Shown here: positions 2,933 to 61,158 of the stretch, piece by piece
How the letters are laid out: every line of letters begins with the position of its first letter
Numbering within the stretch: position 1 is the first letter of the stretch
Origin: Candidatus Limnocylindrus sp.
GTDB taxonomy: Bacteria; Chloroflexota; Limnocylindria; Limnocylindrales; Limnocylindraceae
Length of the DNA: 64,000 nucleotides
Direction: 5' to 3'
NCBI GenBank assembly: GCA_046081085.1
Contig: JBJTVF010000014.1
Span: forward strand, 14,207 to 78,206
Position numbers and translations under genes: made by a program
Notes under the pieces: generated by a model
The model's input: the letters and a program-made list of their open reading frames with translations, nothing else
Told to the model about the DNA's origin: nothing
Database searches by the model: none

Positions 2933-3018
2933 GCCGAAGTGGCGAAATGGCAGACGCAACCGACTCAAAATCGGTCGACCGCAAGGTCATGTGGGTTCGA
3001 CTCCCACCTTCGGTACCA
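2933..3018 (+). tRNA. tRNA-Leu (anticodon CAA), class II with a long variable arm.
   Basis: Cloverleaf folded by eye: acceptor GCCGAAG/CTTCGGT; D-arm GCG-AAATGGCAGA-CGC; anticodon stem ACCGA/TCGGT with loop CTCAAAA; T-arm GTGGG-TTCGACT-CCCAC; 3' ACCA. Confidence 0.85.
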
Positions 3019-3045: not shown

Positions 3046-3132
3046 GCCGAAGTGGCGAAATGGCAGACGCATCCGACTTAAAATCGGCCGGTCGATGAGA
3101 TCATGCGGGTTCGAGTCCCGCCTTCGGCACCA
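3046..3132 (+). tRNA. tRNA-Leu (anticodon TAA), class II. It is a tandem paralog of the upstream tRNA-Leu.
   Basis: The 5' 27 nt are identical to the first tRNA. Anticodon loop CTTAAAA; T-arm GCGGG-TTCGAGT-CCCGC; 3' CACCA. There is one U-C mismatch at the base of the anticodon stem. Confidence 0.8.
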
Positions 3133-4430: not shown

Positions 4431-4464
4431 GCCGCTATTCTGCCGCGTTTACGCAAAGTGCGCC

Positions 4465-31845: not shown

Positions 31846-31922
<77 letters not shown>

Positions 31923-47623: not shown

Positions 47624-48594
47624 GCCGCCACCTCAATGCGCTCAGCGACGCGCATCTTTGCACTTCGGCTCCGTGGATTTTTCGCAACCTCCTCTTCTGT
47701 TGCGGTGAGCGGCTTGTCTGTGATCAGTCGCAGTGAAGGCCTGACGCCACATCCGCAACGCGGGACCTTGGGCGGACAGATGCAGCCCTTTGCTGCGGCG
47801 GCAAAGGCGTTCTTCACAATTCGATCTTCGAGGGAGTGATACGTAAGCACCACGATGCGACCGCCAACGGCAAGCAGGCGGATAGAAGCATCAAGCGCGA
47901 TTGCGAGTGCGCCGAGTTCATCGTTGACCGCAATGCGTAGCGCCTGGAAGACGCGCGTTGCTGGGTGGATGCGCGATGGCTTCCCTGGGCGCGTGGCAAC
48001 CTCTGCCACAAGAGCGGCAAGCTCTTCTGCTGTTGTCACGGGCATAGCAGCACGCCGCGCAACGATTGCGCGAGCAATCTTTCCCGCCTGCGGCTCTTCA
48101 CCAAACTCACGAAGGAGTTTGGTGAGCCCTGGAACCGTAATGTGCGCAAGGAGTGCCGCTGCGCTCTCACCCTCTGTGGGGTTGAAGCGAAGATCAAGCC
48201 TTCCGCCGGTGCGAATTCCAAAGCCGCGATCACGGTCTACAAGTTGATCAGACGAGAGACCAAGGTCAAAGAGGATGCCATCGACGCCGTGAAAACCTGC
48301 CGCCGCGGCGGCCTCAGCAATTCGCGCGCTACTTCCGTGGAACGTCTTCAGTCGCGCGCCGAAGCCGGAGAGTCGTGCCGTCGATCGTGCGATCGCCGAT
48401 GCGTCAGCATCAATGCCGAGCAGCGTTCCGTTCGGAGCGCTTGCCGCAAGCACTGCCGCAGCGTGACCGCCGCCGCCAAGATTCGCATCGATGTATGCGC
48501 CGCCGCTTCGTGGTGCGAGTGCCTCAATCGTCTCGCGGAGGAGAACGGGCTCATGCACGCTGACTGCCTGCGCAGCGCCACGTGCCTCGTGCAT
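47620..48594 (-). CDS. rsmH: 16S rRNA m4C1402 methyltransferase (MraW).
   Basis: HEPVLLRETIEAL...YIDANLGGGGHA...DLGLSSDQL. Confidence 0.92.
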   Translation of the reverse strand: MHEARGAAQAVSVHEPVLLRETIEALAPRSGGAYIDANLGGGGHAAAVLAASAPNGTLLGIDADASAIARSTARLSGFGARLKTFHGSSARIAEAAAAAGFHGVDGILFDLGLSSDQLVDRDRGFGIRTGGRLDLRFNPTEGESAAALLAHITVPGLTKLLREFGEEPQAGKIARAIVARRAAMPVTTAEELAALVAEVATRPGKPSRIHPATRVFQALRIAVNDELGALAIALDASIRLLAVGGRIVVLTYHSLEDRIVKNAFAAAAKGCICPPKVPRCGCGVRPSLRLITDKPLTATEEEVAKNPRSRSAKMRVAERIEVAA

Positions 48595-49022
48595 TAGAAA
48601 CCGAGCCCTTCCAGCTGTGCAGCGAGTGCGTCAGACGACTCCATCGAGCCGCGATATACATCCCATCGCGTTGGCGTCCAAATTTCGGCATGATCACGTG
48701 CGCCGACCACCATCGCCTCGCCCTCTAGTTGGCTCCAACTGCGCAACGTGGACGGGAGAAGGAGGCGTCCCTGCGCATCGAGTTCAACCTCAAACGCACT
48801 GCCGAACAGGAATCGTCCGAACTCGCGCGCACTCGCGTTACCGGTTGGAAGCGCCGCAACCTTTGCGGCGAGGTCGTCCCATGCGGCACGAGGGAAGATC
48901 GCAAGGCAGTTATCCAGCCAGCGGGAGACAAATGCGCCGTCGTCGAGCTGTGCGCGGAAGCGCGCGGGGACGGCGACCCGTCCCTTGCCGTCGATCGTAT
49001 GGCGGTACTCGCCGGTAAACAC
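48594..49022 (-). CDS. mraZ: Transcriptional regulator MraZ. GTG start with a GGAGGGGG RBS; the longer track ORF extends into the operator.
   Basis: VFTGEYRHTIDGKGRVAVPARFR plus a second DxxGR repeat. Confidence 0.85.
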   Translation of the reverse strand: MFTGEYRHTIDGKGRVAVPARFRAQLDDGAFVSRWLDNCLAIFPRAAWDDLAAKVAALPTGNASAREFGRFLFGSAFEVELDAQGRLLLPSTLRSWSQLEGEAMVVGARDHAEIWTPTRWDVYRGSMESSDALAAQLEGLGF

Positions 49023-49057
49023 GTTTATCCCCCTCCGCGTGGCCCTCGGGGGTGGTT

Positions 49058-49122
49058 CCCCCACCACACCCCACTTGCAACCACTTCAATGCATTCTGCC
49101 CCCACCTCCCCCACATGTCAAG
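49058..49122 (-). promoter_or_regulatory. mraZ/dcw promoter. On the mraZ sense strand it has -35 TTGACA (49116-49121), a 17 nt spacer and a -10-like CAGAAT (49093-49098). Three GTGG[T/G] direct repeats at 10 bp periodicity (49060-49084) form a putative MraZ operator.
   Basis: Sense-strand read: TTGACATGTGGGGGAGGTGGGGGCAGAATgcattgaaGTGGTtgcaaGTGGGgtgtgGTGGGgg. Confidence 0.55.
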
Positions 49123-49227
49123 TGACGCAATGGGGAGGAGGGCCTTGAGGGGAAAGCGCGGCAAGGGGTGCGAGTGGGCGACCAGCTCATGGGGGGCGGG
49201 CGTGGCGTGGGGGGTTCCGTTGACGAA

Positions 49228-49578
49228 TGAAGCCGGCGAGATGGTCTATAAGCCGGGTTCTGTCCCCCCTTGCGGGAGCGACGGCCATCCATCTAGGCCA
49301 CCGATTACTCAGTGGCTCGAGCGATCAACCCGAGGACCCTGGCGGTGCGCCAGTTCCAGCCACAAGGGCTGAAGTGTCCCCCTATTTGACCTTGCTCCAG
49401 GCAGAGTTTGCCGCGTTTCACCCCACCATCGAACCGAAGTTCGCGGTGGACTCGTCTCTGTGGCACTAGTCCGCGCCTCGCGGCGGACGGGCGTTACCCG
49501 CTGCCTTTCACCTTGGAGCCCGGACTTTCCTCGAACGAGCCCGAAGGCTCTCTCGCGACCGTCCGACCATCTCGCCGG
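49228..49578 (-). ncRNA. rnpB: RNase P RNA, bacterial type A.
   Basis: The sense strand has the P4 5' strand AGGAAAGUCCGGGCUCC and the P4 3' strand ACAGAACCCGGCUUA. The P1 stem CCGGCGAGAUGGUC pairs with GACCAUCUCGCCGG. Length is about 350 nt. Confidence 0.92.
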
Positions 49579-49587
49579 AGGGGGAGT

Positions 49588-50913
49588 CTAGCGCGCTGCG
49601 ACCTCCACGACGAGCCCGTCAAATCCGGCGAGCACCCCTTGAGGGAGACGCGCGGAGAGCTCCTGGTAGTCAAGATCGTGATCCAAGTGGGTGAGGATTG
49701 CGAGTCGTGGCTTCAGCGCGGCGATCAGGACGAGTGCCTCATCCACCGTCTGATGCGTTGGATGCGGTAGGTCTCGGAGGGCAGAGACGATCAATACTTC
49801 TAGGTTCAGCAGTCGCTCTCGTGAGGCTGGCGAGACGGCAGCGACATCGGTGAGATAGGCAACTGCGCCACTCCGCCACCCGTGGGCAGGGCGACGGCCG
49901 TGAATCAGCGGGATGGCCTCGAAGGCACGTCCGCCGAGCTGTATGTGTGGCACCGCCTCGACCAGCCGCAGGGAAGGGATCCCGTGACCCGGTGCCGTAC
50001 GACCGTCAAACGCGTACTCCCATCGGCGCAAAAGTTCCGTACATGTCTCAGGTCCCGCACCAACATCGAGCACCTCCTCTTGCGCGTCCGTATACGCGCG
50101 CAACTCATCGATACCACCAGTGTGATCAACATGGATATGGGTGATCAGCGCCCCATCCAATCGAGTGATGCCGAATCGCATAGCTTGCTGCCGCAGGTCC
50201 ATCCCTGGATCAACGATCACGGCTCGCGAGGTCGCGGTCACGGCATCTCGCCACTCCATCAGCAACGAACTGCGGAGTCGTTGGTTACGCACATCCTTTG
50301 AGATGCACACTTCGCAGCGGCAGCCGACGCGCGGCACGCCACGAGAGGCCCCAGTTCCAAGAAGCGTCAACGTAGTGGCAGAACGACTTGATCCACCATC
50401 TTCGATCGCGAGGCCATTCGGCGAGGAGACCCCGCGAGAGCGTGCGACGTCATCTGGGCGGCGAACCACCCACGCGGGGCCACCTCGCATGGCGCGATCA
50501 AGCCCTTCGTTCGCAAGCGCGTCGGCCTGATGATTCTCTTCGCGTGGAACATGGGTTGCGCTCCACACGGCAAATCGAGTCAGGCGAGCGCGCGCTTCAT
50601 CACAGAGCGGCGCGAGCTTTGCATCGCGCACACGCCACCTTCCGTTGAGTTGCTCGACCACAAGCCTGCTGTCAAGAAAGAGCTGCAGTTCAGACGCTCC
50701 CAGTTCGGCGGCAAGTTCAATGGCCGAAATGACCGCCTTCCACTCCGCAACGTTGTTCGTCGTTGTTCCAATCGCGGCGGAGATTGTGGCATCGGGCTGC
50801 GCGGAAGGGTGAGCGGCGCCGTCACACGATGCGTCGTAGAGTGCAACGCCAATGGATGCGGGGCCGGGATTCCCTCGGCAGGCGCCGTCCGTTCGGGCGA
50901 TCAGCGCGCGCAT
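49588..50913 (-). CDS. Bifunctional fusion: N-terminal RNase HI-like domain (about 160 aa) and C-terminal MBL-fold PhnP-like phosphodiesterase domain (about 270 aa).
   Basis: N-terminal TDGACRGNPGPASIGVAL...NNVAEWKAVISAIELA...HVPREENHQADALA are the RNase H DEDD-region motifs. C-terminal LTLLGTGASRGVPRVGCRCEVC (a PhnP-like Cys-rich N-motif) and ITHIHVDHTGG (HxHxDH). Confidence 0.75.
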   Translation of the reverse strand: MRALIARTDGACRGNPGPASIGVALYDASCDGAAHPSAQPDATISAAIGTTTNNVAEWKAVISAIELAAELGASELQLFLDSRLVVEQLNGRWRVRDAKLAPLCDEARARLTRFAVWSATHVPREENHQADALANEGLDRAMRGGPAWVVRRPDDVARSRGVSSPNGLAIEDGGSSRSATTLTLLGTGASRGVPRVGCRCEVCISKDVRNQRLRSSLLMEWRDAVTATSRAVIVDPGMDLRQQAMRFGITRLDGALITHIHVDHTGGIDELRAYTDAQEEVLDVGAGPETCTELLRRWEYAFDGRTAPGHGIPSLRLVEAVPHIQLGGRAFEAIPLIHGRRPAHGWRSGAVAYLTDVAAVSPASRERLLNLEVLIVSALRDLPHPTHQTVDEALVLIAALKPRLAILTHLDHDLDYQELSARLPQGVLAGFDGLVVEVAAR

Positions 50914-50919
50914 CGCGCG

Positions 50920-51615
50920 CTAGCCGCGGCTACCAATCGCCGTAGAGACCTCAAGGATCGCCTTGGTGATGTTGATTCCACGAGGACAAGCGTCGACGCA
51001 GTTGAAGGTGGTGCGACAGCGCCAGACGCCGTCTTCGTTGCTCAAGACCTCTAGGCGCTCCTCCGCCCCCTGGTCACGTGAGTCAAAGATGAATCGGTGC
51101 GCGTTGACGATTGCAGCCGGGCCAACGTATTCAGGCTGCGCCCAGAAGCTTGGGCATGAGCTCGTGCAGGCGGCACAGAGGATGCACTTGGTGGTGTCGT
51201 CGTAGACGTCCCGCTGCTCTTGAGACTGCAGGCGCTCCCCCGTCCCCTCCGGCTCGTCGGCAATAAGGAAGGGGAGCACCGAGCGGTATTTACCGAAGAA
51301 TTCGTCCATATCTACGACGAGGTCCTTGACGACTGGGAGTCCAGGAAGCGGGGCAACGCTGATGCTCTTTCCGAGCTGCTCGACGCGAACCTTGCAGGCG
51401 AGGCGGTTGCGCCCATTGATCAAGAGCGCGTCAGAGCCACACACGCCATGCGCGCATGAACGTCGGAAGCTGATGCTCCCGTCGAGCCGTTCCTTTGCGC
51501 GTGTCAGCACGTCCAGCACGCGATCCATCGGCTCGACGGGGACGCGATACTTCTCCCAGTGAGGGGCGGTGTCACTCTCGGGATCGAATCGCTGGATCTT
51601 TAGCTCAACATCCAT
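50920..51615 (-). CDS. sdhB: Succinate dehydrogenase/fumarate reductase iron-sulfur subunit. The start is at MDVELKIQRF, after a GAGGTGG RBS.
   Basis: [2Fe-2S] CxxxxCxxC...C (CAHGVCGSDA) and [4Fe-4S]/[3Fe-4S] cysteine clusters (CILCAACTSSCP; CRTTFNCVDACP). Confidence 0.92.
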   Translation of the reverse strand: MDVELKIQRFDPESDTAPHWEKYRVPVEPMDRVLDVLTRAKERLDGSISFRRSCAHGVCGSDALLINGRNRLACKVRVEQLGKSISVAPLPGLPVVKDLVVDMDEFFGKYRSVLPFLIADEPEGTGERLQSQEQRDVYDDTTKCILCAACTSSCPSFWAQPEYVGPAAIVNAHRFIFDSRDQGAEERLEVLSNEDGVWRCRTTFNCVDACPRGINITKAILEVSTAIGSRG

Positions 51616-51625
51616 CAGGCCACCT

Positions 51626-53405
51626 CTAGTAGACACGCGGCTTCGGCTCAAACTTGGTGATCGTCACCGGCTTGTAGTCAATCTTGGTTGCTGGCGCGTC
51701 CCCAGCCCCCCGCCAGACCAGCGTGTGCGCCAGGTACTTCTCGTCATCGCGCTCAGGGTAGTCCTCGCGGCTGTGCGCGCCACGAGACTCCTTACGCGCC
51801 AGGGCGGAGACCGCAGTTGCCTCTGAGGCATCGAGGAGGTAGCCGAGCTCGCGCGCTTCAAGAAGGTCGGTATTGAAGACGCTCCCCGTGTCTTCCACGC
51901 GCACTCGCTGATACTCATCCTTCAGCCGCTGGATCTCCTTCACCGCGTTCGTGAGGAGTGTCTCGTCTCGATAGACGCCGACGCCCTCCATCATCACATC
52001 AGCCAGGGCTCGACGGATCTCTGCCGGCCGCACACCTTCAGGTCGCGTGGAGAGGGCGAGCATCTCGTCGCGAATCGCCCGCTCGGCCCCTGCAACGTGC
52101 TTCGGGGCGGCGGTTTTCTTGCAGATCTCAGCCATGCGCCTCCCTGCTCGCTTACCAAAGACGAGAAGGTCAACGAGTGAATTCGTGCCGAGGCGATTCG
52201 CGCCGTGGACACTCACGCAGGCAACCTCTCCTGCGGCGAAGAGACCAGGGACAACGCCGCCCGCAGCGTTCGCAAGCACTTCGGTTTCGAGGTTGGTTGG
52301 CACGCCGCCCATCGCGTAGTGGGCCGTTGGCTGCACGGGGACGGGCTCGCTGATTGGCTCTACACCCTGATAGACACGCGCTAAATCGGTAATGTCAGGG
52401 AGTTTCTCCTCAATCACCTTGCGACCGAGGTGTCGCACGTCAAGGAACACGTAATCCTTGCCGTTGATGCCGCGCCCAGCGCGGATCTCCTGGTACATGG
52501 CGCGCGAGATCATGTCACGCGGCGCAAGCTCCATCAGTTTCGGCGCGTACGTCTCCATGAACCGCTTTCCTTCGCCGTTCAGCAGGTAGCCACCTTCGCC
52601 ACGCGCCGCCTCAGAGAGAAGAATGCCAATCCCCACAATGCCCGTTGGGTGGAACTGATAGAACTCCATGTCCATTAGCGGAACGCCGTGACGCCAGGCA
52701 AGCGCCAACCCGTCACCTGCGAGCGAATGCGCATTTGAGGTCACGCGCCATGCGCGACCGTATCCACCAGTCGCAAGGAGTACCGCTTTCGCGCGCAGCA
52801 CATGGAGTGAACCGTCAGCAATCTTGTAACCAACGACGCCACTGCAACGTCCACCTTGATCGGCACTGCCGCCCTCGAACAAGAGATCAACGACGTGGTA
52901 CTCGTCATAGAACTTGACGCCCGCCTTGATGCACTGCTGATAGAGCGTCTGCAGGATCATGTGTCCGGTGCGGTCAGCCGCGTAGCAACTGCGTCGCACT
53001 GGCCCTTCACCGTAGTTACGTGTGTGACCACCGAATCGTCGCTGATCAATCTTCCCGTCTGGTGTGCGATTGAATGGGAGCCCCATCCGCTCCAACTCAA
53101 TCACCGCGGGGATCGCTTCGCGAGCGAGTACTTCAGCCGCGTCTTGATCGGTCAGGTAGTCGCCACCTTTAATGGTGTCGAACATGTGCCACTCCCAGTG
53201 GTCTTCTTCCACATTGCCAAGCGCAGCGCAGACTCCACCCTGGGCTGCGCCCGTGTGTGATCGCGTTGGGTAGAGCTTCGTCAGTACGGCGGTTGGGATC
53301 CCTTCACGCGCAAGCTCAAGTGCCGCCCAAAGGCCGGCACCACCCGCGCCAACGACAATTGCATCAACGGCGAGCTGTCCCGCTTCGGCTCGCAGTGCAC
53401 TACTC
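51626..53405 (-). CDS. sdhA: Succinate dehydrogenase flavoprotein subunit. The start is at MSSALRAEAG; the ORF-track N-terminal 110 aa overlap sdhD and are spurious.
   Basis: FAD-binding VVGAGGAGLWAALE and RSHTGAAQGG (the His covalent FAD site). It is in the sdhCDAB order. Confidence 0.93.
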
Positions 53406-53415
53406 ATCTCTCGAC

Positions 53416-53805
53416 CTAATCGAATGGAAGCGCGATAACGACCTGGGTGCCCAAGACAAAGAGGATCAGTGCAAGCAGGTAGAGCGCGCCGAGTGAGAGG
53501 CTGCGAACCTTCGACGGAGCGTAGTCCTGCACCACCGTGCGCATGCCGAGGAAACCGTGCACCAGCACCGCCATCAGCATCCCCCAGTCGAGCGCGCGTA
53601 GGGCCACGGAGTTCCATCGCGTCTGGCGCACCCACTCTGCGCTTTGGTCCGCAGGGTCGAAGACGAAGTGTGTCATGGTGAAGTGAGCGAGGGCGAGGAC
53701 AAAGAGTGCGAGTGAACTGAGGCGCACGGCGTACCAAACGTACAGGTCCAGCTTGGATCCGGTCGGTCGCGGGCGCCCCGCGATTGAGTACTTCTGAACG
53801 CTCAT
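53416..53805 (-). CDS. sdhD: Succinate dehydrogenase hydrophobic membrane anchor subunit. The start is at MSVQKYSIAG, with an ATGA overlap onto sdhC.
   Basis: Three TM helices with a conserved His. It lies between sdhC and sdhA. Confidence 0.7.
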   Translation of the reverse strand: MSVQKYSIAGRPRPTGSKLDLYVWYAVRLSSLALFVLALAHFTMTHFVFDPADQSAEWVRQTRWNSVALRALDWGMLMAVLVHGFLGMRTVVQDYAPSKVRSLSLGALYLLALILFVLGTQVVIALPFD

Positions 53806-54215
53806 CCGACAGCCTCCCAGATCGGCTTCAGGATGATGTAGGCGCCAGGGAGCCCGATTGCGAAGAAGACGATCCATACGATCCGCCACATCTGGCGGTG
53901 GTATGCGGTGAGTGCCGGCCAGAAGTCCATCACCACAATGCGCATGCCATTCAGCGCGTGATAGAAGAGTGCCGCGCCGAGGAGGGTCTCCATGACGCGC
54001 CCCGGAGGACTGGAGTAGATCTGGCCAAGGTAGTCGTATAGCTCGGGGTTCGCTCCAATCAACCAGATGTCAATGACGTGGAGGATGATGAAGAGCCAAA
54101 CACCGATGCCGGAGATGCGGTGAAATGCCCAGGCGACCATCCCCTCGCCGCCCCGATACGAGGGGTAGCTGCGAAGCTTCTGGGGCGAAGCGAGCGGTCC
54201 AGATCCTCGCGACAT
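53802..54215 (-). CDS. sdhC: Succinate dehydrogenase cytochrome b subunit. The start is at MSRGSGPL.
   Basis: The HRISGIGVWLFIILH heme-ligand helix and three TM segments. Confidence 0.75.
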   Translation of the reverse strand: MSRGSGPLASPQKLRSYPSYRGGEGMVAWAFHRISGIGVWLFIILHVIDIWLIGANPELYDYLGQIYSSPPGRVMETLLGAALFYHALNGMRIVVMDFWPALTAYHRQMWRIVWIVFFAIGLPGAYIILKPIWEAVG

Positions 54216-54358
54216 GGGCAACTCCCCTCTGCTCCGGCCGGCGACTCTGCCGCTCCGTGACCGTTGAACACATTCTAGCCGCGACGGTTGGGACCTGCAC
54301 GCGTACACTCCCCCATGACAACTCGGGCGGGTGCCCATCAGCAACAGACGGAGGCGAG

Positions 54359-55531
54359 ATGAAACTGCACGAGGCAGAGGCCCGCGAACTCCTTCGTCGC
54401 GCTGGTCTCCCCGTCCCTGACGGCGAGGTCGCAACAACCCCAGCCGCCGCCCGAGCCACTGCAGAGCGACTCTTTGCTGGCGGTGCCACAAAGGTTGTCA
54501 TCAAGGCCCAGGTGCTCGTTGGCGGTCGCGGCAAGGCGGGCGGCGTCAAGCTCGCTGGGAGCGCCGAGGAGGCGGAGAAGATCGCGGCGCAGATCCTTGC
54601 ACTCACTATCAAAGAGCTCCCAGTGCGTCGCGTGCTCGTGGCTCCCGCGTCGGAAATCCTCCGCGAGATCTATCTCTCCGCACTAATCGATCGCAGCAGC
54701 CGCGGCATCCTCCTCATGGCATCGGCCGCCGGTGGTATGGAGATTGAAGAGGTGGCCGCAAAAGATCCGACGGCGATCATTCGCGAGAACGCGCATCCGC
54801 ATGCAGGTCTCCTCCCCTTCCAGGCGCGACGCCTCGGGCTCCGCATCGGTGCACGCGGCGATCTCCTTAAGCAGTTCGTCGCAATCGCAACAGGACTCGT
54901 CCGGGTTGCACGAGAAGCAGACGCCGATCTCGTCGAAGTGAATCCGCTCGCTGTTGTTCCAGCGCCCGAGCTTCCAGGCGGCGAACGACTCGTCTGCCTT
55001 GATGCGAAGGTCACAATTGACGACTCCGCACTTGACCGTCACCCAGAGCTTGAAGCGTGGCGCGACGAAGATAGTGAGGATCCTATTGATCGCGAGGCGC
55101 GGGAGATGGGGATCGCCTATATCCGACTTGACGGCAGCATTGGCTGCATGGTGAACGGCGCGGGTCTTGCCATGACCACACTCGACCTTGTGACTCGTGC
55201 TGGCGGTACGCCAGCAAACTTCCTAGACATTGGCGGCGGTGCTCGCGCCGATAAGGTTGCCGCCGCCATGCGCATCATCCTTGCGGACACAGGAGTTAAC
55301 GCAATCCTCGTCAACATCTTCGGCGGTATCACGCGTGGCGATGAGGTTGCGCGCGGACTCATTGAGGCACGTGGCCAGCAGGAGCGCACCGTTCCGATGG
55401 TGGTGCGCATTGTTGGCACGAATGCAAGAGAGGCGGCAGAGCTTCTCACCGCGGGTGGGTTTGCAACGGCATCAAGCCTTGATGAGGCGGCGGAGAAGGC
55501 GGTGGCTCTCGCCGCAGGAGGTGCGGTGTGA
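54359..55531 (+). CDS. sucC: Succinyl-CoA synthetase beta subunit. The start is at [11 protein letters not shown].
   Basis: ATP-grasp N-terminus [20 protein letters not shown] and a C-terminal CoA-ligase domain. Confidence 0.93.
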
Positions 55532-61083: not shown

Positions 61084-61158
61084 TGGCTCCGGCGGTAGGG
61101 CTCGAACCTACGACCTAGCGGTTAACAGCCGCCCGCTCTACCACTGAGCTACGCCGGA
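61084..61158 (-). tRNA. tRNA-Asn (anticodon GTT).
   Basis: Reverse complement TCCGGCGTAGCTCAGTGGTAGAGCGGGCGGCTGTTAACCGCTAGGTCGTAGGTTCGAGCCCTACCGCCGGAGCCA. Anticodon loop CTGTTAA. Confidence 0.9.

Follow-up and report, generated by a model that had tools for sequence, protein, structure and literature searches.

An RNase HI and PhnP-family metallo-hydrolase fusion of Limnocylindria, encoded immediately ahead of rnpB

A 64,000-nucleotide (nt) stretch of DNA from Candidatus Limnocylindrus sp. (Chloroflexota; Limnocylindria; GenBank assembly GCA_046081085.1, contig JBJTVF010000014.1, positions 14,207 to 78,206 of the forward strand), hereafter the window, contains an open reading frame (ORF) of 441 amino acids in which a type-1 RNase H (RNase HI) is joined to a metallo-beta-lactamase (MBL) fold domain of the PhnP family. 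The ORF ends just upstream of rnpB, the gene of the RNase P RNA, and had been singled out in an earlier note made from the letters of the sequence. We consider it probable, though well short of certain, that the product is a two-module enzyme whose RNase HI and Fpd-like diphosphatase parts are independent of each other, and that rnpB has its own promoter, which overlaps the end of the ORF.

Domain composition of the fusion protein

The ORF starts with ATG, stops with TAG at 49590..49588 (minus strand) and holds all the motifs that the earlier note had quoted. Those of RNase HI are TDGACRGNPG (residues 8-17), NNVAEWKA (residues 53-60) and HVPREENHQADALA (residues 121-134), while the MBL part carries the Cys-rich LTLLGTGASRGVPRVGCRCEVC (residues 182-203) and HIHVDHTGG (residues 259-267). 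Searches against Pfam gave RVT_3 (E=2.3e-19; 69.9 bits, cut-off 21.6) and RNase_H (E=2.4e-11; 44.4 bits, cut-off 25.8) over residues 5-137, and Lactamase_B_2 (E=1.7e-25), also exceeding its curated cut-off, over residues 230-409. The note had proposed structure prediction as a check, and the AlphaFold2 (AF2) model indeed comprises two confident domains with a disordered linker between them.

In the N-terminal domain, D9, E57, D81 and D131 align to the catalytic carboxylates D10, E48, D70 and D134 of E. coli RNase HI, so the complete type-1 core claimed for it is present. The numbering of the E. coli reference used for this residue mapping is self-consistent. Wherever the alignment column is present, these four DEDD residues are at least 90% conserved among the homologues (alignment A1). 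The nearest solved relatives are RNase H1 of Halobacterium (4E19), 3HST and LC11-RNase H1 (E=1e-21 to 1e-26). The domain is 44% identical to 4E19, with a target-normalised TM-score (TM) of 0.94 in Foldseek, and about 38% identical to 3HST, the RNase H domain of Rv2228c (E=2.5e-25); TM across 4E19 and 3HST is 0.92-0.94. The AF2 confidence score (pLDDT) is above 90 over residues 1-140. Judged by sequence and model, the domain thus appears to have all the features expected of an active type-1 RNase H. It would belong to the Rv2228c / Halobacterium / LC11 subfamily and would cut the RNA strand of RNA:DNA hybrids such as R-loops and primers.

Predicted chemistry of the C-terminal domain

The assignment of the C-terminal domain to the PhnP family, with a Cys-rich structural zinc motif, likewise held. 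Its putative metal ligands are H259, H261, D263 and H264 of the HxHxDH motif together with H338, D356 and H409, and its structural zinc site consists of C198, C200, C203 and H412 (Cys3-His), an arrangement common to E. coli PhnP and Fpd. Apart from H264, all these residues are invariant in alignment A1. D269, R272 and Y300, which are equivalent to Asp96, Arg99 and Tyr127 of the Brucella melitensis enzyme BAB1_1016, are also invariant and are found in Fpd as well.

Its closest characterised relatives, at 35-38% identity, are Fpd of Koribacter versatilis and BAB1_1016. Fpd (6B9V; E=2.7e-48) is the best solved match, with 35% identity, a TM of 0.90 and an rmsd of 2.0 Å, and shares the CxCxxC...H structural site, the HxHxDH motif and the D/R/Y residues after motif 2. 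BAB1_1016, a 'beta-lactamase-like protein' by name (3MD7, 3PY5, 3PY6, 3QH8; E=6.6e-45 for 3PY5), is 37-38% identical, with a TM of 0.84-0.85, and the nucleotide-binding D/R/Y residues are kept. Fpd, as Beaudoin and co-workers are said to have found in 2018, is a Mn2+-dependent diphosphatase of ADP-sugars, FAD and ADP-ribose with almost no cyclic phosphodiesterase activity. Its genes reportedly cluster with genes of FAD synthesis and transport, which was the criterion used to find it. No ribF or flavin transporter gene was found adjoining the fusion gene. Among the homologues, one that is 43% identical to the MBL domain (P0261) is fused to FAD synthetase (FAD_syn). In the PDB, 6B9V bears the title 'a New Diphosphatase from the PhnP Family', and a later paper labels 6B9V 'FAD photoproduct diphosphatase', with Beaudoin et al., Biochem J 2018 as the source (PMC7599082).

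BAB1_1016 has a binuclear Mn centre, was co-purified with GMP and turned AMPPNP and GMPPNP into AMP and GMP. The products were bound at the dimer interface, where their ribose and base are held in place by Asp96, Arg99 and Tyr127 of the neighbouring subunit (PMC3169410). Since the nucleotide-binding residues belong to the partner subunit in the solved relatives, the MBL module is probably dimeric too. By homology at moderate identity, the most likely chemistry is the conversion of a nucleoside-diphosphate-linked compound to a nucleoside monophosphate by a dimeric Mn enzyme, and not the opening of a cyclic phosphate. The C-terminal module would accordingly contain a binuclear metal site, probably of Mn2+, as a hydrolase of the Fpd / BAB1_1016 subfamily; most likely it would split ADP-X into AMP and X-P, with damaged FAD or ADP-sugars as examples of ADP-X.

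Distribution of the fusion

Relatives were scanned with one genome per GTDB species (560 relatives), and the locus counts given here refer to the best 80 of these. Both domains stand in one frame in 76 of the 80 loci when contig ends are allowed for, and all of these belong to Limnocylindria. The other four are two contig-end fragments with one domain each (L058, L078), one locus partly cut at its 5' end (L013) and one unfused MBL (L079). The survey that the earlier note had suggested therefore bore out the conservation of the fusion. Full-length homologues, 44-99% identical, occur in many independent assemblies and metagenome-assembled genomes (MAGs), named Candidatus Limnocylindrus, Chloroflexi or Chloroflexota where a name is given. 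They fall into a freshwater Limnocylindrus/Aquidulcis clade, to which the window belongs, and a distant clade that consists mostly of MAGs with the label uncultured Chloroflexia or Limnocylindrales.

When 1.84 billion representatives at 50% identity were searched exhaustively with HMMER, the full architecture turned up in two clusters only, P0010 (93% identity) and P0079 (52%). Nearly all the other strong matches were standalone MBLs of about 255-270 amino acids with 33-47% identity. The fusion is apparently conserved within, and confined to, the class Limnocylindria. In the literature searched, we found no description of an RNase H fusion to an MBL or PhnP domain, and this absence is no proof of its being undescribed. 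As to its origin, an MBL gene lying between rnhA and the rnpB promoter may have lost its own start in one sub-lineage of Limnocylindria, and the resulting fusion would then have been retained.

The RNase HI domain is masked by the names now in use, 'MBL fold metallo-hydrolase' and 'phosphoribosyl 1,2-cyclic phosphate phosphodiesterase'; the latter comes from JGI automatic naming of many homologues. In two long-read soil MAGs of the distant clade (L075, MBL match to 6149; L076, to 6110), the MBL frame is broken about two-thirds through the domain, which could reflect pseudogenisation or a sequencing frameshift. Other architectures seen among the relatives are a GNAT-MBL protein (P0247), tandem double RNase H (P0258, P0289) and a SAP domain with three RNase H repeats (P0368).

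Relation between the two modules

The linker is predicted to be disordered, with pLDDT below 50 for residues 156-176, and in alignment A1 it differs strongly in both length and sequence. A conserved Pro/Gly/Asp-rich motif, LEPGFDPGDxGPDPG, stands at the linker end in the distant fused clade (A1 columns ~250-270; for example the ORF at 4446..6401 of L045) and is missing from the clade of the window. The predicted TM-score (pTM) of the AF2 model is 0.63 in spite of two confident domains, so no fixed packing of one domain on the other is predicted. Between the clades, the RNase H domains are 57-69% identical and the MBL domains 42-48%. In sister lineages, RNase HI occurs as a standalone protein of 150-210 amino acids with 60-67% identity. 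Elsewhere it has another partner, which is a VOC/glyoxalase domain at the N-terminus in P0104, a SnoaL domain at the C-terminus in P0113 and a C-terminal region of unknown type in P0119. There is also a precedent in the mycobacterial fusion of RNase HI with CobC, in which removal of CobC left RNase H function unimpaired in vivo, the phosphatase phenotypes were independent of RNase H activity, and fixation by drift was proposed (PMC7466739; bioRxiv 2022.11.09.515703).

The earlier note had suggested a coupled pair of end-processing activities. In such an enzyme the MBL domain would act on RNA or DNA termini alongside RNase HI during primer or R-loop removal, either by removing 2',3'-cyclic or 3'-phosphates or by converting the 5'-triphosphate of an RNA primer to a monophosphate. 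The fusion has persisted through deep divergence, and none of the fused loci has split genes; for this reason we keep coupling as a minority view. RNase Z is among the MBL-fold relatives, and PhnP hydrolyses 2',3'-cyclic nucleotides in vitro. RNase H, however, leaves 3'-OH and 5'-phosphate ends, and because of this it would not supply a cyclic phosphate to a partner. The closest characterised relative is reportedly a small-molecule diphosphatase, as described above. Nor is confident packing between the domains predicted, and the partner of RNase HI varies or is missing in sister lineages. The Brucella homologue speaks on both sides: it cuts both AMPPNP and GMPPNP at a point between the alpha and beta phosphates and adjoins tatD and metG, but Asp96 from the second protomer forms hydrogen bonds with ribose O2' and O3', which fits a mononucleotide product better than a polymer (PMC3169410). 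We therefore judge coupled end-processing to be unlikely, and in the form first suggested it was not supported.

Independent modules, tethered by a flexible and poorly conserved linker, are favoured instead because the linker, the pTM value, the unequal identities between clades, the variable partners, the ends left by RNase H and the RNase HI-CobC precedent all point that way; most likely, the two modules would act separately.

Gene order and the rnpB promoter

RNase P RNA was identified by a match to the full RF00010 model (positions 1-367; 250.3 bits, gathering score 100; E=2.5e-80). The stop codon had been placed about 10 nt from its 5' end on the same strand, which agrees with the gap of 13 nt by Rfam, or of 9 nt when P1 is taken to include the CCGG at 49578..49575, complementary to the CCGG at 49236..49233. 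Apart from this 4-bp extension, the 13-nt gap showed no special RNA element, and no leader-trailer pairing past P1 was seen. Upstream of the fusion lies sdhC-sdhD-sdhA-sdhB with sdhB last (Sdh_cyt ORFs at 53419..53889 and 53805..54491).

Directly downstream and on the same strand, rnpB was found in 75 of the 80 loci; four of the exceptions lie at contig ends and the fifth is the unfused MBL. On every contig that reaches far enough, synteny covers the whole block sdhA-sdhB-(fusion)-rnpB-mraZ-rsmH. Loci with an unfused or otherwise fused RNase HI have the same order, icd-sdhCDAB-rnhA-rnpB-(LysM)-mraZ, with rnpB identified by Rfam. Between ORF and rnpB, the 37 measurable loci of the Limnocylindrus/Aquidulcis clade all have a gap of 12-13 nt; in the distant clade it is 43 to ~140 nt, or ~690 nt in about a dozen loci with a GDSL-family ORF inserted. 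Because the block is syntenic, unfused rnhA and rnhA with other partners keep the order, and the gaps vary by clade, adjacency to rnpB is not specific to the fusion; the order of rnhA and rnpB predates it. As to the proposed survey, adjacency is conserved but is also present without the MBL domain. Furthermore, the median intergenic spacer of freshwater Limnocylindraceae is 12 bp, with the longest spacers in the sister family CSP1-4 (PMC13212565), so a gap of 13 nt is the norm for this genome.

The inserted GDSL/SGNH-family ORF is exemplified by L045 (6417..7079, plus strand; 220 amino acids; Lipase_GDSL_2, E=4e-16), and similar insertions occur in L047, L052, L053, L055, L060, L065-L067, L070, L071 and L075. 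This insertion, together with the MBL, VOC and SnoaL partners, suggests that the flanks of rnhA, chiefly the slot before the rnpB promoter, repeatedly take in genes. One further locus, L085, comes from a MAG with the label Candidatus Dormibacteraeota bacterium (GCA_035632595.1). Its RNase HI is about 65% identical and stands in the same icd-sdhCDAB-rnhA-rnpB-mraZ block; either the synteny reaches past Chloroflexota or the MAG label is imprecise.

For the promoter comparison, 77 loci were anchored on the conserved 5' end of rnpB; these loci are related and are not independent samples. In 76 of the 77, a TAnnnT hexamer keeps a constant offset (±1 nt) and ends 6-7 nt ahead of the first base of P1, against a background of 0.0012 per position. 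The hexamers seen are TAGACT, TAGAAT, TAAGAT, TAGGAT, TACGAT, TACAAT, TAGCAT and TACCAT. The offset holds even in loci with gaps of 43-750 nt, whose upstream sequences cannot otherwise be aligned. All 38 close-clade loci end the ORF with TAG, whereas TGA is used by 32 of 36 distant ones, in which stop and hexamer do not overlap. The standalone RNase HI of L085, with a 14-nt gap, independently has the same overlap of TAG with TAGAAT. Synonymous sites are also constrained: their identity over the last 12 codons is 0.74 vs 0.55 upstream, a value reached by none of 118 upstream blocks of 12 codons. The window has TCGTCG (3/6 to a -35 element) at a 17-nt spacing from the hexamer; no -35 consensus was found in either clade, and a generic sigma-70 scan made no call at the site. 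No terminator-like structure was found between the ORF and rnpB, so read-through sdh-rnhA transcripts carrying rnpB are probable alongside.

From these observations we infer that the fusion gene would be the last cistron of an sdhCDAB-rnhA block and that rnpB would be expressed mainly from its own promoter. The -10 box of this promoter would use the TAG stop of the ORF, with its upstream part within the last ~12 codons, as a product of genome streamlining. Co-transcription is possible, but the layout can be explained without it.

The proximity had also been read as a sign of co-transcription with, and a link to, RNase P RNA. As weighed here, such a functional link would mean obligatory co-transcription and a nuclease acting in the maturation or turnover of this RNA or of its substrates. 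It is true that in each of the 75 fused loci of sufficient length rnpB comes immediately after the ORF and on its strand, that the short gap is constant in the close clade with no predicted terminator, and that the MBL fold is related to that of RNase Z. Nevertheless, the adjacency belongs to rnhA and is kept for unfused RNase HI and other partners, the entire sdhA to rsmH block is syntenic, the gaps in the distant clade are far longer, a conserved -10 box precedes P1, and the spacer equals the family median. Such a link is thus very improbable, and this part of the earlier note was not supported.

Between rnpB and mraZ, which are 165 nt apart, there is a separate, strong sigma-70-like site (49093..49121, minus strand; TTGACA, 17-nt spacer, CAGAAT; 10/12 matches). 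No other promoter-like call was made in 48500..54500, and the site is probably the promoter of the mraZ/dcw cluster.

Remaining doubts and weaker alternatives

Several points weigh against an Fpd-like enzyme of independent modules followed by an autonomous rnpB promoter. First, the activities of every member of the fusion family are predicted from homology. Second, the Fpd-like label stands on 35-38% identity, and every equivalog cut-off of NCBIfam was missed (NF038231, 227 bits; PRK02113, 188 bits; TIGR03307, 79.5 bits), so the true substrate could differ. Third, only the Limnocylindrus/Aquidulcis clade keeps the last His of HxHxDH, H264 (HIHVDH; 50122..50124 of the window, minus strand). The distant fused clade (loci L039-L080) has HEHADA, HEHQDA or HEHQDS, with Ala or Ser in its place. 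It lacks one canonical ligand of metal site 2, and therefore its MBL chemistry or metal content may differ; family members may not all share one chemistry. Fourth, the fusion is intact in about 75 species-level genomes, down to ~45% MBL identity, which could reflect selection for physical coupling and not neutral retention. The MBL module, instead of being a separate metabolite-repair enzyme, might share a substrate with RNase HI: it would, for example, strip the 5'-triphosphate, or another nucleoside-diphosphate-linked end, from the RNA of primers or R-loops as RNase HI cleaves the hybrid, in a disposal machine of one polypeptide dimerised through the MBL domain. We regard this version as rather improbable. 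Last, no -35 element is recognisable, and, since no terminator precedes rnpB, read-through rnpB transcripts are likely too.

The C-terminal domain might also be a true PhnP, i.e. the 5-phosphoribosyl 1,2-cyclic phosphate phosphodiesterase that serves in the C-P lyase pathway for phosphonates. The automatic JGI names say so for many homologues, and the fold and the Cys3-His zinc site are as in E. coli PhnP. However, the 79.5 bits for TIGR03307 compare with an equivalog cut-off of 272.25. Identity to E. coli PhnP (3G1P; E=4.2e-14) is 24%, with a TM of 0.76 vs 0.84-0.90 for Fpd and the Brucella enzyme. No phn genes (phnG-M) were found near the fusion gene, whose neighbours in all related loci are sdhCDAB, rnpB, mraZ and rsmH. 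The unfused MBL homologues L087-L089 have inconsistent neighbours (DUF1844 twice, glycolytic genes once), with no phn or flavin genes among them. A true PhnP is thus highly improbable, and the cyclic phosphodiesterase identity (2',3'- or 1,2-) proposed earlier gives way to that of the nearest characterised relatives, which are nucleotide diphosphatases. By its sequence, the domain is a member of the PhnP family in the broad sense without being a PhnP orthologue.

An artefactual origin of the single ORF, be it by frameshift, by chimeric assembly or by the merging of two separate genes in gene calling, is practically excluded: databases do hold merged sdhB-RNase H calls for the region (P0102, P0111, P0120), and two distant loci have the disrupted MBL frames mentioned above, but the same continuous, uninterrupted ORF of 417-495 amino acids recurs in independent NCBI, JGI, ENA and Logan assemblies as well as in the 76 loci, and the linker is read in frame without an internal stop or an alternative start signal.

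Comparison with known systems

The fusion resembles the RNase HI-CobC proteins Rv2228c of M. tuberculosis, MSMEG_4305 (RnhC) of M. smegmatis and SCO2299 in having an N-terminal RNase HI of the same subfamily and a variable linker to a C-terminal phosphohydrolase, which would likewise act on a small nucleotide-like molecule. As in MSMEG_4305 (PMC7466739), the two domains evolve at different rates. It differs from them in its C-terminal fold, which is an MBL of the PhnP family and not a histidine phosphatase of the CobC type, and in its host, the Chloroflexota class Limnocylindria and not Actinomycetales. The model of the bifunctional RNase H/acid phosphatase, PRK07238, was matched over positions 2-140 of 378 only (125.8 bits vs a cut-off of 326), and the architecture is, as had been proposed, distinct from the actinobacterial one.

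The relatives of each module differ from the fusion as well. Fpd is a standalone protein of ~255-270 amino acids, and the fusion gene, whose diphosphatase activity is predicted from its sequence, does not stand beside FAD-synthesis genes. BAB1_1016 lacks the CxCxxC motif, is standalone and lies beside tatD and metG (PMC3169410). E. coli PhnP shares the family-level fold and HxHxDH but has no Asp equivalent to D269 and is an enzyme of the C-P lyase pathway. The archaeal-type RNases HI (4E19; LC11, 3U3G/4H8K; Sulfolobus tokodaii, 2EHG) belong to the same RVT_3-like subfamily with DEDD residues, but are single-domain proteins, that of Halobacterium having an N-terminal extension only.

The fusion is thus best filed as a lineage-restricted member of the known class of bifunctional RNase HI-phosphohydrolases. 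If confirmed biochemically, it would be a second RNase HI-phosphohydrolase fusion, structurally unrelated to RNase HI-CobC of Actinobacteria. This RNase HI subfamily gains small-molecule or damage-control partners repeatedly (MBL, VOC, SnoaL, CobC). A second example would help to decide between functional coupling and neutral fixation in compact genomes. It also matters for annotation, where the current names conceal RNase HI and probably misstate the C-terminal activity. Moreover, a stop codon that forms the first half of the rnpB -10 box would mean that streamlining has packed a promoter into coding sequence in abundant freshwater bacterioplankton, and the start predicted from it is testable.

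Feature coordinates and other observations

Table 1. Position of the fusion gene, its parts and its neighbours in the window
Feature	Coordinates	Strand	Basis
Fusion ORF: RNase HI, linker and PhnP-family MBL	49588..50913	minus	ORF list, domain matches, full-length homologues
N-terminal type-1 RNase H domain, residues 1-150	50464..50913	minus	RVT_3/RNase_H, alignment, PDB matches, Foldseek, pLDDT
Inter-domain linker, residues 151-178	50380..50463	minus	pLDDT, variability in A1
C-terminal PhnP-family (Fpd-like) MBL domain, residues 179-441	49591..50379	minus	Lactamase_B_2, NCBIfam, PDB matches, Foldseek, A1
Last 12 ORF codons, putative spacer and -35 region of the rnpB promoter	49591..49626	minus	Synonymous constraint, junction alignment
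TAGACT, putative rnpB -10 box; first three bases are the TAG stop of the ORF	49585..49590	minus	TAnnnT at fixed offset
rnpB, RNase P RNA class A	49233..49578 (Rfam 49233..49574; P1 probably to 49578)	minus	RF00010
sdhB	50920..51651	minus	Fer2_3 and Fer4 domains; stop 6 nt ahead of the fusion ATG

The sdhA ORF as listed (51626..53737, minus strand; 703 amino acids, TTG start) carries an N-terminal extension of ~110 amino acids that overlaps the sdhD-like ORF at 53419..53889. Its true start is probably near residue 111 (MSSALRAEAG...), because tblastn matches in relatives begin there. Elsewhere in the window, two tRNA-Leu genes with anticodons CAA and TAA stand in tandem on the plus strand (2933..3018 and 3046..3132, with 27 nt between them), and tRNA-Val(CAC) and tRNA-Asn(GTT) genes lie on the minus strand at 31846..31922 and 61084..61158, respectively.

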